DNA of 63,650 nucleotides, the filler included, from Candidatus Woesearchaeota archaeon (GTDB lineage: Archaea > Nanobdellota > Nanobdellia > Woesearchaeales > B72-G16): NCBI GenBank assembly GCA_003650545.1. It is 3 parts of 3 records of this genome, joined end to end, with 100 filler letters (N's around TTAATTAATTAA, not from the genome) between each part and the next. Parts side by side here need not be neighbours in the genome. Positions count along the whole stretch, not along the records: positions 25,134 to 50,084 come from QMQO01000020.1; 2 more parts are not named here. One strand, given 5' to 3'. Positions 30,001 through 36,000 of the stretch are shown one piece after another (the stretch's first letter is position 1; each line of letters opens with the position of its first letter). The position numbers were made by a program.

Positions 30001-33000
30001 CTAACCAAAAGCTTTTAAATACCGCTTATTATTTAAATCATGGACAAGGGAAAATGGCACTGAAATACAAAACAACAAGAGATATCAAAATACCTAAAAA
30101 CATAATCGATCAAGTCATCGGACAAGATGATGCAGTTGCAGTTATAAAGAAAGCTGCAAAACAAAGAAGACATGTTCTCTTAATAGGAGAACCGGGTACT
30201 GGTAAAAGTATGCTTGGTCTTGGCCTAGCTGAATTATTGCCAAAGGAAAAGCTTGTTGATGTTCTCTCGTTCTTTAATCCGAATGATGAAAACCAACCTT
30301 TGATAAGGACTGTTGAAGCTGGCAAAGGCCGCAACCTCGTTGCTAAGTCAAAACTACATGCGACAGGTGTTTTTCGTGGCTATAATTTCCTGTTATTCAT
30401 TCTTGTAATTATTGCTATGATTGCACCATGGTGGGGGTTTAACCATTATTCCAATATTCCTGGAGGAAATCTTCAGATTGGCGCTATCATGTTTGTTGCA
30501 TTATTCATGGGTGGCATGATTTTCTTGGCAGCATTCATATTATTCTTGAATCTTGGCAGGAAAGCAGGCATAAAGACAAATGCGCCAAAGTTAATAGTTG
30601 ATAACTTTGACAAAAAGAAAGTACCTTTCTATGATGCAACCGGGGCACATGCTGGAGCACTGTTGGGGGATGTACTTCACGATCCATTTCAGTGTTTCTT
30701 CCGTTCTCAAATGATAACAAAACTAACAGGCGGAAAGTTAATGAATGTAGAAATAAATAAAGAAATTAATGACTTATTCAACAATTCTAAAAATTTAGAA
30801 AAGAAAGATGGATACGAAGCAGTTTTTCTAAACAAGAACGATCTTGTGGTTCTAGGTGAATCACAAGGTTCAGTTTCGCCTGTTGATGTTTTATCAGCAA
30901 ACAGACATGATTACGAAGGCGAAATGATAAAACTGATGACTTCGGAAAACAAAGAACTAATAGTTACACCCAAACACAAAATAGCACTCTGGAAAAATGG
31001 GAAAATCGTTTATACTGAAGCTAGAGACATTAAAAATGGTGACACAGTTGTCTCAAAAGCTGAAGATATCATAATAGATGAAGACGATATAATTAATACA
31101 TTCAATAGAAAACAACAGAAACAATGTAAATTATACTATCAAAATTTAGATTCCCAACAGAAGAACAAAACCAGCAAGCACAAAAGAATTGAAGTGTCTA
31201 TAGACCAAAAAATAAGAAAAGCTCGATGGTGGCATACTAGAAATACACCTGATCCAGTTCAAATGATCAATTGGTTAAAGAAAAGAAAGTTACTACCTCT
31301 AAAAATAGATAACATAAAACTGCATCTTATCGCAAGGGTTTTGGGGGCCATGTTTAGCAATAACGGAGGAGTAACTGAAAATCTAAATGAGATTTTTTTA
31401 TCAGGCTCTGATAAGGGAGCGATAGTGAATTTTAAAAAGGACATCGAAACTATTTTTAATCTAAATAAAGATGAAAAGTCACAGATAATTGAAGATAAAA
31501 ACCATAAAAACCATGAGCATTCATGGTACTATCAAAATACTAATAAGAGTATGATCAGATTTTTTTTAGCTCTTGGTTTGCCAATCAGTAATAAAAAAAA
31601 TACTGTGCTAAATGTTCCGCAGTGGATTAAATCCAAAGGTGAACTAGAAGACGAATTCTATGGGTCTTTTTTAGGAAGAGAATTATCATCATCGCATAAT
31701 ATAGATAAAAATGAATCAGTAGAATTGAAAGTAGAAATACCTTCTGAAAATCGAAAGATGTTTTTATACCAACTTGCAAACTACTTGCAGAGAAAAGGTA
31801 TCGAGAGCAATACCACGTATATAAAAAATATAAAAAGAGTATCTGAAAAAAGGCTGTCTGAAGATTTAGTATGTAGATTACGGATAAGTACTAAATTTGA
31901 TAATGTTATCAAATTTTTAATGAAAATAACTCTATCTTACTGTGACTACAAAACAGAAAGATTATTCTTAGCATTAAGAAAACAGGCAAAAGATAAAAAG
32001 AAAAAATATTATTCCTTAATAAATCAAGGCTATGGGGCAGAAAATGTGATGAGATTATTGAAGTTAACTCCCAATTCACTCTATTTGTTGTTAAACTACT
32101 TAGAAGAAAAAAGTGAGGGAGCTACAACTTGAAACTCACAAAACAAACAATAACTGATGTAAAGAAGATTCATTATAAAGGGAAATTATATAATGTTACA
32201 ACTAGCTCAGGCAATATCATCGTTAATGGTGTTTTATGTTCAAACTCAGGTGGATTAGGAACACCTGCGCATGAGCGGGTTGTTGCCGGTATGATACACA
32301 AAGCAAATATGGGTGTTCTATTCATTGACGAAATTGCTACACTGCAACCCGCAACTCAGCAGGAACTATTAACAGCGCTGCAAGAAGGCAAATATTCTAT
32401 CACAGGACAGTCCGAACGTTCGGCAGGAGCTATGGTTAGGACAGAACCTGTGCCATGTAACTTCATTCTTGTTGCTGCAGGTAATGTTGAAACAGTGCAA
32501 CGTATGCACCCTGCACTGCGTTCTAGAATTAGAGGGTATGGCTACGAGGTTTTTATGTCTGATACGATGAAGGATACACCGGCTAACAGGGATAAGATTG
32601 TTGTGCTGGTTGCTCAGGAAGTTGCCAAGGATAAGAAAATTCCGCATTTTTCGAAAGAAGCTGTTGGCGGCATAATTGAAGAAGCCAGAAGAAGAGCTAA
32701 CAGAAAAGGTCATCTTACATTAAGGCTGCGTGAGTTAGGTGGTCTTATAAGAGCAGCAGGTGATATTGCTGTTGAGCAAAAAGCAAAGGTTGTAGAACTT
32801 AAGCATATAAAGCAAGCATTAAAGATTGCTCGCACATTAGAGCAACAGATGGCTGACAAATCCATCGAGCGGAAAAAAGAGTACGAGGTCATTGTTACAA
32901 CAGGAAAAATTATTGGTAGAGTTAATGGTCTTGCAGTGATGGGATCTGGTGAAACATTCTCAGGGATCATACTGCCAATTGAATCCGAAGTTGTTCCAGG

Positions 33001-36000
33001 TGGTAAAGAACGTGCAATTATTGCAACTGGCAAGCTTGGCGAGATTGCGAAAGAAGCAGTGAAGAATGTTTCAGCCATTATTAAAAAATATTTTGGAATG
33101 GACATCAAAGAAAAGTTTGATATTTATGTACAGTTCTTGCAGACTTATGAAGGCGTGGAGGGTGACTCTGCCAGCATAGCCGTTGCAACATCAATTATTT
33201 CAGCTTTAAAAAAAATACCAGTAAGGCAAGATACAGCAATGACAGGCTCGCTATCTGTAAGAGGAGAGGTCTTGCCGGTTGGTGGTATTAGCTACAAAAT
33301 TGAAGCTGCTATAGACGCAGGCATGAAACGTGTTATAGTGCCAAAATCGAATGTGCAAGATATTGTGATTGAGAAAACCAGATTAGAAAGGATCAAGGTT
33401 ATTCCTGTTACTAATATTTCTGAAGTTTTGAAGGAAGTACTTGATTGGACAGGTAAAAAGGATGTTCTTAAGGTGATTATGAAAAAATAAAAAATACCAA
33501 ATTTTATATATCAAATTTTATTGATTAATATCAATAATAATCAAAATAAAAGAAAAAAAATTGCACCCTTTTTCGTTTTTTTTTACATTACTACTATTCT
33601 TTATTACTATTCTTTATTTCGGGCACATTCTATTCCAAGCAGTTATCGCAGCTCTTCTGTTATCATACTCATTTTTATGTGCAAACAACCACCTATTCTT
33701 CGCTTGCTCACTACAAGGATTGAATGCAGCAGGTTGTTGTACAGCAGATTGCTGATTATAACCACTTAGACCTGATTGTTGGTAGTTTTGTGGTTGAGCA
33801 GCTGGTTGTTGTTGTGGCTTATTTTTTGCATTTAACTCTTTTTTAAGATGGTTGATCTGCCTTGTGTATTCTGCTTTTATATTTTGGATTTTTTGTTCAG
33901 CAGATTGAATATCTGTTTCTGCTTTAGCCAAGTCTGACCAAACACCAGCCATAATTTTTTCCATTTGTGGTCCATAGCTGTTTAGGGCATTCCATTCCCA
34001 GTCATTAAGACCGTCATCAATTATAATCTGTTCCTGACACTGATCCTTAGATATACTTCTCAAGTTACAGTATGACAAAAACCATTCGCCCAATGTCTCT
34101 CTACCAACAGCAGCATTTGTATACTGTACTAGGATTTCTAGTGAAGCCATGCCTGTTTTCAAGTCATTGTACTCTTTCCAGTCTGCTGCAAGTTTGTCGT
34201 AGTCAGATTGTAGGGCTTCTTTGTTTTCAGGATTATTTGCTAATTGTGCTTTAATATCTACATACTCTTCTGCCCTTGAGCTAAGCGTCTGGATTCTATT
34301 TTTTGTGTACTCACAAGACATTCCTGCATTATAGTTAATATTTGTGTTATCTTTACAATGCTCCTTTGCAAACAATAATGTTCTATCGATAGGTTTAAGT
34401 TCCTCGGACTCTTTTGACAAAACATGCATAGCTCGGATACCTTTTGTCGTTGTCCATCTGTGAAACAAATCGCTTTTATAATAAGTATAAGTCAATATAC
34501 CGCCAGCTATAACAAGCGGTGATAGAACAGACGCGACAATCTTTGTTACTTTTTTCCATTTATCAGCCTCTTCGTCAGATATCTCATGAGCATGCTGTGT
34601 GGTCGATTTGCTTTGGCGAAGAGCTATCCCTGCTTCATCTTTCGCTGTAGTAGCTCTAAAATCTTGTTTACCTCCTCCTTGTCCTGCTGTCATACCGACT
34701 GGTGTAACAGTTTCATTTTCATTTTCCATTTTGATATACCCCCTAATTCTAGTAATTATTTAACATAATCAGGCACGATCCTTCTTGGTGGAATACCTAA
34801 CCTAGTAGCTCGTGCCACCTCCTCATTCTTAACCCCTGGAAGATAATGTTTGATTAGTTTTCTGTGCTTTGCTCTTGCTTTAGGAACTTCGCGTCTATAT
34901 CTTCTTAGATATTTTCTCAAGTGTCTATGATCTTTGTGTCTTAACCTAGGATCTCTTATAAGTGCAAACTCAACATCCTTTAGGATGTTATTTTCATGCT
35001 CATAAAGTATGCTTGCGTTAGGAGCGTATTGTAGTATGTCTTTAGTCCACATCACATCAAGCAGCCTCTTAAATACAAAGTGTCCAGCATCAACAATGTC
35101 AGTCATACTAGGGCGGATTTTTGCCCACTCTGAACGATAATCAACCTTGTCCCAATAACAACCCCCATAAATTCCTCTTGGGTCTTCATCGTGTAATGAT
35201 ACATCTGGATCTTCAGGTAAACTACCTATGTTATAGAAAGTTACCATATGTTTAGTGCTACATCTTTTATTTAGATCATTAACATAGTTATCTCCTGTGT
35301 CTATGTCTGATTTATTAAATATCAATGCAATCTTGTTATTAAAGCGTTTTCCGAATACATCATTAATCTTACCTGCAAAAAGCCTTTCTATATTTTCCAC
35401 AACAGGACCATACTTTTTGCCCAATTCATCGAAGAGCTCTTTATTCTTTTTCAATTCATCAATTCTTTCAGATATAGAGTGACAGTAATCTGTCTCTAAT
35501 ATTATGTTTTGTATGATTTTACTTTTTTGATCTGAATTGAAGTTGCCTTCAATTAGTATCTCTGCATTATCATACAAGTATGCTATCTGAATTCCAGCAA
35601 TAAAACTATCAAGATCGCTTAAACATGCTGGTGTTGGATTAACAGCATAGACCGGAATATCAGAATTACAAAATCGAACCTTAGCATTTTCGTCTAAGCC
35701 AGCACCAACAGCTTCAAAGATGAAATCAACATCAAGCTCAGCTTCCTGTTCAGTTAGTTTTTTTAAACCTTTTATCAACTCTCTTCTCCGTGAATCGAAT
35801 ATTGGGATGCCAAGATTAAAATTTTTTGGTCCAGGCGCAAAATAGAAGTTTCCTGCATCTACTAAATTTGTAATATTACCCTGTTCATCATATTCCAATG
35901 GTTCTCTTATTCTTATTGTTTGATATATTCCGTCTACAAATGCGCGAAACTCATAAACTGTTTTCCTTCTTTTTATGTGTCTTAAGGTATCCTTAATATG

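Follow-up and report, generated by a model that had tools for sequence, protein, structure and literature searches.

A woesearchaeal LonB protease encoded in two overlapping genes that break inside an intein, with probable protein trans-splicing

In the genome of a Candidatus Woesearchaeota archaeon (GCA_003650545.1), the coding sequence of LonB is divided between two neighbouring genes that overlap, and the break lies within an intein inserted at HDPFQ|SGGLGTP, between the homing-endonuclease domain of the intein and its last ~39 residues. From the conservation of both halves and their splicing residues in relatives, we think it likely that a naturally split intein joins the two products by trans-splicing into LonB, for which this is the organism's only detected gene. 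The locus lies in a 63,650-nt stretch of DNA (the window, made of parts of three records joined end to end), in the part taken from QMQO01000020.1.

Two overlapping genes encode LonB

The product of the first gene (ORF1) is the N-extein of LonB followed by a 479-aa N-intein; that of the second (ORF2) is a C-intein (IntC) with terminal Asn, followed by Ser+1 and the remaining LonB (Table 1). The TTG of ORF2 shares 4 nt (TTGA) with the end of ORF1. As a TGA in the ORF2 frame lies only 4 codons 5' of this TTG, a fusion of the genes by frameshift or indel is conceivable only within ~14 nt. An earlier note had described this break inside the intein and where it falls, and the ORFs and frames confirm both.

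Table 1. Features of the two-gene LonB locus, in positions along the window
Feature	Position	Strand	Basis or remark
ORF1, N-half gene	30054..32132	+	ATG start at 30054
LonB N-extein, 213 aa, Walker A (GEPGTGKS), ends HDPFQ	30054..30692	+	translation; TIGR00764 profile 2-211
Hint-N, N-terminal splicing part of intein, ~125 aa, Cys1 and block B T-P-K-H	30693..31067	+	Pfam Intein_splicing profile 4-96; TIGR01445
Predicted LAGLIDADG homing-endonuclease domain and helical tail, ~354 aa, in frame behind Hint-N	31068..32129	+	AF2, Foldseek, NF038162 match
GAGGGAG, Shine-Dalgarno-like purine run	32115..32121	+	7 nt 5' of TTG, inside end of N-half gene
TGA stop, N-half gene	32130..32132	+	sequence
ORF2, C-half gene	32129..33490	+	TTG start at 32129
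C-intein (IntC), 39 aa, TTG start, ends ..NGVLCSN	32129..32245	+	sequence, frames, relatives
LonB C-extein: Ser+1, Walker B, lid, Lon_C protease domain, 414 aa and stop	32246..33490	+	TIGR00764 profile 195-602; Lon_C E 3.5e-32

The NCBIfam LonB model TIGR00764 is covered in full length only by both halves together, with the C-half alone scoring 616.9 bits (cut-off 516.6). In ORF1 the Pfam model Intein_splicing is matched by its N part alone (profile 4-96 of 155), whereas ORF2 matches Lon_C and the LonB lid. The two Walker motifs are on different halves, A on the first and B on the second, and the N-extein has two hydrophobic stretches that, judged by eye from the translation, resemble the LonB membrane anchor. 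No second LonB gene was detected in the same genome. After splicing, the LonB junction would equal that of the uninterrupted LonB of most relatives.

The sequence of the locus comes from one metagenome sample, and one DNA run, probably from the source sample, carries it; no RNA run is listed as doing so. A second, independent assembly, a Logan contig from run X1 that probably derives from the same sample, shows no difference over 31700-32600 at a word depth of 35.6. The other inteins of this genome each lie in a single frame, most of them matched by both the N and C parts of the Pfam model (on contigs C5 and C7 by a single match), which makes general assembly damage unlikely. A ParA-like ORF at 34756-36465, considered as a further intein carrier for the long gap in its Pfam match, has no intein motifs in its sequence, and Rfam gave no match within 25134-40000.

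Conservation of the split layout among relatives

Among the best 120 database N-halves, 118 have HDPxQ and none has the C-extein; their intein part is 463-508 aa long, and all 118 HDPxQ-bearing N-halves stop after the same domain. The intein end N|SGG..TP is present in every one of the best 120 C-halves, and Ser+1 lies exactly 39 residues past the called start in 114. The remaining six are longer gene calls, with 43-66 residues before Ser+1 and an internal Met further in. In the species genomes, a start codon lies precisely 39 codons 5' of Ser+1 in all 17 two-gene loci with both halves. Relatives are named Woesearchaeota or Nanoarchaeota depending on the source, and as related genomes are not independent, these counts overstate the number of events. 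The genome comparison excludes matched loci in G025, G089, G133, G141, G143, G155, G180, G191, G350 and G384 and the second places in G172 and G298. Judged from these relatives, the comparison shows that many genera within this archaeal order have inherited the layout, as the earlier note had proposed for Woesearchaeota.

IntC and the C-extein appear to be under long-term constraint, as they stay similar where synonymous sites are saturated. Eleven IntC positions are invariant across 24 genomes, and mean pairwise identity is 71% for IntC and 75% for the C-extein. Synonymous sites were saturated or non-computable in all nine pairs, and the dN/dS ratios obtained where computable are rough (0.03-0.36; 0.03-0.2 for the exteins).

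If recoding, by frameshift, stop read-through or another bypass, produced one contiguous cis-splicing precursor, then the two ORFs would be misleading. Such a reading could draw on the identical -1 overlap (ATGA or TTGA) at 11 of the 17 loci, and on two loci in which the halves lie in frame, separated by a single stop (TGA or TAG) and one codon. However, the junctions vary among genomes: the remaining four loci have gaps of 14, 34, 224 and 325 nt, one of which (L018) holds an unrelated 108-codon Cys-rich open frame. In this genome, moreover, only 4 codons separate the TTG from the in-frame TGA 5' of it, and they hold no slippery heptamer. The conserved start at -39 is accompanied by a Shine-Dalgarno-like motif at -20..-4 of the C-half start at 12 of the 17 loci (background 0.23) or, under a strict definition, at 9 of 17 (background 0.14), and in relatives with a three-gene form of the locus a TATA-like hexamer lies at -29..-36 of the IntC gene in 6 of 7. 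We therefore regard recoding as very improbable. A broken LonB made by pseudogenization, or by an assembly or sequencing error, seems to us more improbable still. It would fit the single metagenome sample and an endonuclease part that is visibly decaying, but the Logan assembly is identical at a depth of ~36, the same break recurs in 118/118 and 120/120 database clusters from many sources, both exteins are conserved, and the genome has no other LonB. The earlier note's statement that the break is no frameshift error thus holds, and the two-gene reading is the one we follow here.

Splicing residues, C-intein charge and endonuclease domain

Cys1, block B TPKH and a C-terminal Asn with Ser+1 (..CSN|S), as in class 1 inteins, are all present in this genome. 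Across relatives, the 118 N-halves comprise 51 with C, 42 with T and 25 with S as residue 1 of the intein, TxxH of block B is found in 117 of 118, and terminal Asn with Ser+1 in 120/120 C-halves. These counts, which closely reproduce those of the earlier note, show that the splicing residues have been kept, as far as comparison of relatives can tell. Thr at intein position 1 is non-standard: it was ‘not observed to date’ in 2009, although splicing by an S1T mutant is reported (PMC2807308). Block F is without its usual Asp and His and the penultimate His is absent, features that are common but not obligatory in class 1; the penultimate residue is Ser in this genome, and K in 98, S in 17, A in 3 and R in 2 of the 120 C-halves. 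The deviation had been noted earlier as a reason to doubt splicing. The deviation is real and still counts to some degree against splicing, but it is shared by 98 contiguous LonB inteins, including that of Pyrococcus abyssi, which have the same site and the same block F/G motif (..YN.TT..GN...N..L.[KS]N). The penultimate K/S and odd block F are family traits and not signs of decay. The contiguous forms must cis-splice, since LonB could not otherwise exist.

IntC is strongly basic only in split forms: its net charge there averages +5.4 (n=120), versus -1.4 for the same 39 residues in contiguous inteins that share the endonuclease type (n=37). Hint-N was considered as an acidic partner and set aside, its mean net charge being 0.08 in split and 0.69 in contiguous forms. 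An acidic linker patch has -4.5 in split forms versus -2.6 in contiguous ones, and is in part a trait of this endonuclease type and not of the split forms. As Hint-N as a whole is not acidic, the charge complementarity usual in split inteins shows up only in IntC and in the linker patch of the endonuclease module. A-rich codons near the start codon could be another source of the lysine-rich IntC N-terminus. Charged halves are a known feature of split inteins, and the abstract of a preprint mentions charge-charge interactions for gp41-1. The HINT fold was modelled for a contiguous mini-intein relative (L030) in place of the two separate chains of this genome; the predicted fold is a canonical HINT domain (pLDDT 82.8; TM 0.72-0.86 to solved inteins), in which the strands equivalent to IntC are confident.

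Two real genes could also yield a two-chain LonB, in which the intein halves are only a non-covalent docking module and splicing does not occur. The missing penultimate His, the atypical block F and the bulky endonuclease domain that stays on the N-half would all suit such a module, the case for splicing is deduced and not read from an observed product, and there is a precedent in a ribonucleotide reductase, described as a fragmented enzyme held by interaction domains from a mobile element (PMC3045599). A mere dock, however, would not keep its nucleophiles while synonymous sites saturate, and residue 1 is C, S or T without exception. Contiguous inteins, for which splicing is a necessity, show these atypical motifs as well. 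Furthermore, if unspliced, the intein would put ~518 aa between the two Walker motifs within the AAA+ module. Docking alone is thus improbable in our view, if less so than recoding, and we infer that the halves associate and splice.

The ~300-aa insert behind Hint-N had been described earlier as of unknown fold with a LAGLIDADG-like motif. The fold can now be assigned: the AF2 model (pLDDT 74) matches the TliVMA, PI-TkoII, PI-SceI and PI-PfuI inteins in Foldseek, and I-DmoI at TM 0.63-0.66, in keeping with the alpha-beta-beta-alpha-beta-beta-alpha fold of LAGLIDADG enzymes, and the NCBIfam RtcB-intein model NF038162 matches ORF1 residues 280-642. The insert is thus a predicted LAGLIDADG homing-endonuclease domain. 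In model comparison, the four matched inteins have, like the N-half here, Hint and a two-motif LAGLIDADG domain, but they are contiguous and only 10-16% identical to it in sequence. Of 69 columns without variation in the 17 other genomes, 16 are changed in this one, against 0-4 in each other genome. The motif-1 Asp is kept in 106/118 relatives and Glu in 107/118, and N-N at the motif-1 Asp position is found only here. By this comparison the domain is decaying or drifting in this genome, with the motif-1 Asp lost, and because N-N replaces that Asp the endonuclease is probably inactive here.

A model for joining LonB, and its relation to known inteins

In our model, the two genes would be co-transcribed and the second translated from its own TTG via coupling or re-initiation, helped by the Shine-Dalgarno-like GAGGGAG. 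The N-fragment, with Walker A, Hint-N and the endonuclease domain, would be membrane-anchored, and the C-fragment, with IntC, Walker B, lid and protease, soluble. Contact between the fragments would be made by the intein halves, with the HINT fold completed by the N-terminal, lysine-rich half of IntC. Class 1 splicing would start with an acyl shift at Cys1, aided by the block-B Thr/His, followed by transfer to Ser+1, and would end with cyclisation of the terminal Asn of IntC and an O-to-N shift, giving a LonB of 627 aa. In relatives the endonuclease is intact, and homing by it presumably propagates the split cassette as a whole. If trans-splicing does take place, a widespread DPANN group would depend on it for its only Lon protease, a membrane enzyme. 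The LonB family would also offer new cysteine-free split-intein pairs (Ser1 or Thr1, with Ser+1, and K/S for the penultimate His) for protein engineering.

A more speculative extension, which we think less likely than not, is that of a still-mobile split intein that carries its endonuclease. The LAGLIDADG enzyme, left as a non-covalent IntN-HE/IntC by-product, might home the cassette into intact LonB alleles and so change LonB from a protease of one gene into one made by trans-splicing from two, with natural Thr1 in about a third of relatives. Membrane Lon would then form only when the halves meet, a built-in post-translational control point. The patchy distribution of the cassette among families would follow from such homing.

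There are few natural split inteins. Most belong to DNA-replication enzymes, in cyanobacteria, in phage-like metagenomic DNA or in Nanoarchaeum, and the usual description is that of a two-piece mini-intein. Cyanobacterial DnaE and Nanoarchaeum equitans PolB, like LonB here, are important enzymes in two genes with a short C-intein of ~35-40 aa. These classical cases are not known to contain an endonuclease domain, have an N-intein of ~100-120 aa and often have their halves far apart in the genome, whereas the N-intein here has 479 aa. Split inteins have been described as mini-inteins in two parts (Novikova et al., 2016), and the literature searched describes no natural split intein in which a domain of 354 aa separates Hint-N from the break, a point against the split-intein reading.

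The closest known system is the contiguous LonB intein of Pyrococcus and Thermococcus (for example P. abyssi LonB, P0238), which is inserted at the identical position (HDPFQ|C.. and ..N|SGGLGTP). Like the intein here, that of P. abyssi has Cys1, Ser+1 and the odd block F/G motif, there with Lys in the penultimate place; its endonuclease region is homologous (29% identity over 179 aa, E 9e-10), and its N-extein is 49% identical, with the same HDPFQ|CF boundary. The Pyrococcus/Thermococcus intein, of 333-476 aa, lies, however, in a single ORF and splices in cis, whereas the one here is cut into two genes behind the endonuclease and its IntC is strongly basic. Ten LonB inteins are listed in Euryarchaeota (Novikova et al., 2016), and a further published paper, going by its title, deals with the mechanism by which the Pab Lon intein splices. 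The arrangement described here, a split LonB intein in Woesearchaeota or DPANN, was not found in the literature searched, which lay mostly outside subscription journals; it is a real and apparently undescribed split variant of the known Lon intein.

The ‘fractured genes’ of Dassa et al. (2009; PMC2677866) resemble this locus in that the host gene is broken inside an intein, its parts stay ordered in one locus with frames that sometimes overlap, and an endonuclease gene lies at the break. They differ in having a free-standing GIY-YIG or Vsr-like endonuclease, where ours is LAGLIDADG and in frame with the N-intein, and in their hosts, enzymes of DNA synthesis or repair and not a membrane protease; ‘LAGLIDADG’ has 0 occurrences in the text of that paper. 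A free-standing endonuclease gene between the halves is absent here. It is present in L020-L025 and L029, and the three-gene relatives (L020-L029, from other orders of the same class) have exactly the fractured-gene form. Among relatives, one LonB site thus holds a contiguous full intein, a contiguous mini-intein, a two-gene split with the endonuclease fused to the N-half, a three-gene split whose endonuclease is free-standing and an endonuclease-less split. With every intermediate state of the Lon intein at a single site, these loci could serve as a natural series on the origin of split inteins and on the adaptation of their halves, of which the shift of ~6 charge units in IntC would be an example.

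Two overlapping LonB genes and their junction

LonB is encoded in the window by two ORFs that overlap by the four bases TTGA. The gene 1 protein matches positions 2-211 and the gene 2 protein positions 195-602 of TIGR00764, the NCBIfam LonB equivalog (608 positions). These LonB parts are separated by the 479 residues that follow ..HDPFQ in gene 1 and by the 39 residues of IntC (the C-intein) that precede SGGLGTP.. in gene 2. For gene 1, the Pfam match to the intein splicing domain is confined to the N part of that domain (profile 4-96 of 155). In the frame of gene 2, a TGA precedes the TTG by four codons, and from there to Ser+1 this TTG is the sole start codon. 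The ORF, TIGR00764 and Pfam data at the junction therefore confirm, to the base, the earlier note's description of the ORFs, their overlap, the HDPFQ/SGGLGTP borders and the partial Pfam match.

Coordinates of the LonB genes and of other features in the window
Feature	Position	Strand	Length
Gene 1 ORF (P0001; LonB N-extein and N-intein)	ATG 30054 to TGA 32130-32132	+	692 aa
SD-like purine motif GAGGGAG	32115-32121		
Gene 2 ORF (IntC and LonB C-extein)	TTG 32129 to 33490	+	453 aa
ORF	33614-34729	-	371 aa
ParA/MinD-like protein	34756-36465	-	568 aa
ORF	36639-39455	+	938 aa

As the earlier note proposed, mature LonB is probably made by trans-splicing. The two proteins would meet via their intein halves, and the product would have 627 aa, with Walker A and the membrane anchor supplied by gene 1 and Walker B, lid and protease by gene 2. 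We infer that the genes are co-transcribed and that their translation is coupled. An SD-like purine motif, as found in the window, occurs at -20..-4 in 12/17 two-gene loci, against a background of 0.23.

Conservation of the split form and competing explanations

A search with the N-intein found 197 proteins. Among the best 120 of these 197, HDPxQ is carried by 118, all of which end 463-508 residues later, and none of the 118 has a C-extein. For the C-half, the query was IntC plus 61 extein residues, and 120 proteins of similar length were among the matches listed. All 120 read ..N/SGG..TP. In 114 of them the called start stands precisely 39 residues ahead of Ser+1; in the remaining six the gene was called longer, which puts 43-66 residues ahead of Ser+1. 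At E<=1e-10, the N-intein has a match in 40/401 sampled genomes of the phylum.

We also examined 30 LonB loci (L001, L003-L031), 18 of which have the window's two-gene layout, with one (L015) cut by a contig end. Each of the 17 two-gene loci with both halves has a start codon at exactly 39 codons ahead of Ser+1. Their junctions comprise 4-nt overlaps (11 loci), in-frame arrangements in which a stop plus one codon precede the ATG (2) and gaps of 14, 34, 224 and 325 nt (4); leaving out L004 (genome G360, flagged unpublished), one of the 17, gives 16/16 starts and 10 overlaps. The 325-nt gap, in L018 (genome G170), contains an open 108-codon Cys-rich frame with several CxxC-like pairs.

These N-half, C-half and start-codon counts bear out the earlier note's view that the layout is no frameshift error and is kept in relatives, as does run X1 (probably the source sample), one Logan contig of which is identical over 31700-32600 at a word depth of 35.6. 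The other intein-bearing frames of the genome each hold their intein within a single frame, and a second LonB was not found in this genome (85% complete). Accordingly, we consider it extremely improbable that the interruption is an error or marks a pseudogene. Recoding at the junction is hardly more credible.

Non-covalent assembly of the LonB halves is a more serious rival, albeit an unlikely one. The earlier note worried that non-canonical splicing residues might mean that the halves only associate. Such residues are indeed present, but the contiguous inteins at the LonB site share the atypical block F/G (in them ..YN.TT..GN...N..L.KN). The worry is weakened because inteins that have to splice in cis make do with these very residues. 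Moreover, the intein begins with C, S or T in all 118 N-halves, block B TxxH is found in 117/118, and all 120 C-halves have the terminal Asn and Ser+1. Thr1, which is not in the window, occurs in 42/118 split N-halves (relatives with Thr1 include P0010, P0119, P0127, P0136 and P0142) and in several contiguous LonB inteins; a passage of a 2009 paper (PMC2807308) states that it had not yet been seen in natural inteins. IntC matches the extein in conservation: mean pairwise identity among the other genomes is 0.71 for IntC, 0.75 for the extein, 0.49 for Hint-N and 0.58 for the endonuclease, and synonymous sites are saturated.

In split forms, the net charge averages +5.4 over IntC and +4.7 over its first 19 residues (n=120; kinship inflates the statistics). 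The corresponding 39 residues of contiguous inteins average -1.95 when all those at the site are taken (n=98), and -1.4 in the subset with the same endonuclease type (n=37). We read the basic IntC as an adaptation to partner-finding in trans, with codon effects near the start codon as the alternative.

A split Lon intein with an endonuclease in its N-half

When IntC was used to find longer proteins, 120 were among the matches listed: 98 carry a contiguous intein of 165-498 aa at HDPxQ/SGGLxTP, six have an empty site and 16 do not match the pattern used to sort them. The 98 come from Thermococcus, Pyrococcus, Archaeoglobus, Micrarchaeota and Woesearchaeota. P. abyssi LonB contains a contiguous 333-aa intein after the same N-extein end as in the window (HDPFQ/CF), with 29% identity to the window over 179 aa of the endonuclease region; how the Pab Lon intein splices is reportedly the topic of a published paper. 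P0136, a contiguous relative with Thr1, runs colinearly with gene 1 as far as residue 680 of 692. On sequence grounds, we take the window's intein to be a split allele of the known Lon intein, of which a list in Novikova et al. (2016) gives 10 in LonB of Euryarchaeota.

Modelled with AlphaFold2 (pLDDT 74.3, 18 sequences), the N-intein matches the endonuclease-bearing inteins TliVMA (E 5e-10), PI-TkoII, PI-SceI and PI-PfuI, and the middle of the model matches LAGLIDADG enzymes of the monomeric kind, for example I-DmoI (TM 0.63-0.66). The NCBIfam model of intein-containing RtcB matches gene 1 residues 280-642. Judged from these matches, the insert is a LAGLIDADG homing endonuclease domain; in relatives with intact motifs the split intein may still be able to home. 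This assigns the fold of the insert, which the earlier note called unknown while mentioning a LAGLIDADG-like motif. By a pattern-based count, the catalytic acidic residues are kept in most relatives (Asp 106/118, Glu 107/118), and the window alone among the N-halves compared has N-N at the first catalytic acidic position. At endonuclease columns invariant in 17 other genomes, the window deviates at 16/69 and each other genome at 0-4, while at invariant Hint-N columns the window deviates at only 1/13. These alignments indicate an endonuclease that is decaying in the window's lineage while the splicing parts are retained.

Compared with the literature searched, a split Lon intein allele whose N-half retains a LAGLIDADG endonuclease is new as a version of kinds already described. 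The 'fractured genes' described in passages of Dassa et al. (2009; PMC2677866) differ in having free-standing GIY-YIG or Vsr-like endonucleases and DNA-metabolism hosts.

States of the site across relatives

The 18 two-gene loci all lie within the window's order. In other orders of the class, a 'fractured' three-gene form (L020-L025, L027, L029) consists of N-extein and Hint-N, a free-standing LAGLIDADG endonuclease ORF that starts at the ..E-D-I-I-N-T-Y.. linker, and IntC with the C-extein. This endonuclease ORF is broken up in L029 and interrupted by in-frame stops in L020 and L022, and L023 has additional ORFs between the LonB halves. Expression signals vary with the layout: a TATA-like hexamer at -29..-36 is present in 6/7 three-gene versus 3/17 two-gene loci, counted without a shuffle control. 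In L026 (genome G120), the split intein has its endonuclease deleted, with an out-of-frame helical-tail remnant and a ~60-aa ORF between the halves. Contiguous full inteins occur in L028 (474 aa) and L031 (468 aa), and L030 (genome G373) has a contiguous mini-intein of 171 aa at the same site, the model of which shows a confident HINT domain (TM 0.72-0.86 to the PhoCDC21-1, PhoRadA, TvoVMA and PabCDC21-1 inteins).

In a tree of IntC and C-extein (27 rows, mostly extein signal; root and direction of change not established), the three-gene loci form a single group (100/99), L026 pairs with L014 (100/99), and L030 is nested in a 98/97 group of two-gene loci. This position suggests either re-fusion after endonuclease loss or repeated splitting; L030 is possibly a natural re-fusion of a split intein.

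LonB is present in 241/251 sampled genomes of the order, tallies that include seven genomes flagged unpublished. Among the best match rows listed, to which 127 more belong outside the listing, LonB is a single frame of 605-782 aa in all but three. LonB is therefore normally uninterrupted, and the split form has a patchy distribution; by family, N-intein matches occur in, for example, 6/42, 4/10 and 2/29 genomes. In the same order, a LonB locus with 9 stops over 1226 codons (G477:C1:13084-16713) is possibly a decayed intein, and an uninterrupted 1085-aa LonB frame (G234:C56:192-3308), to which the window's N-intein gives no match, probably has a different intein inside. Some relatives, among them P0061, P0053, P0022, L009 (genome G367) and L012 (genome G280), have an extra contiguous intein with a canonical LAGLIDADG domain in the Walker A loop (GEPGTGK/C ... 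HN/S). As their HDPxQ-site intein remains split, a single LonB would require cis- plus trans-splicing.

Elsewhere in the window, where positions 1-25033 are contig C19 and those from 25134 onward C20, gene neighbourhood is invalid across the joint. At E<=0.001, Pfam has no match for the 371-aa and 938-aa ORFs. The sequence of the ParA/MinD-like protein showed no intein motifs; its match to CbiA covers just 116 profile positions yet stretches over residues 75-422, which points to large insertions. The genome itself is intein-rich, with 16 Intein_splicing matches spread over some 9 open frames (523-1747 aa); intein frames lie on contigs C5, C7, C10, C12, C14, C16 and C87, and two matches share one 1693-aa frame.
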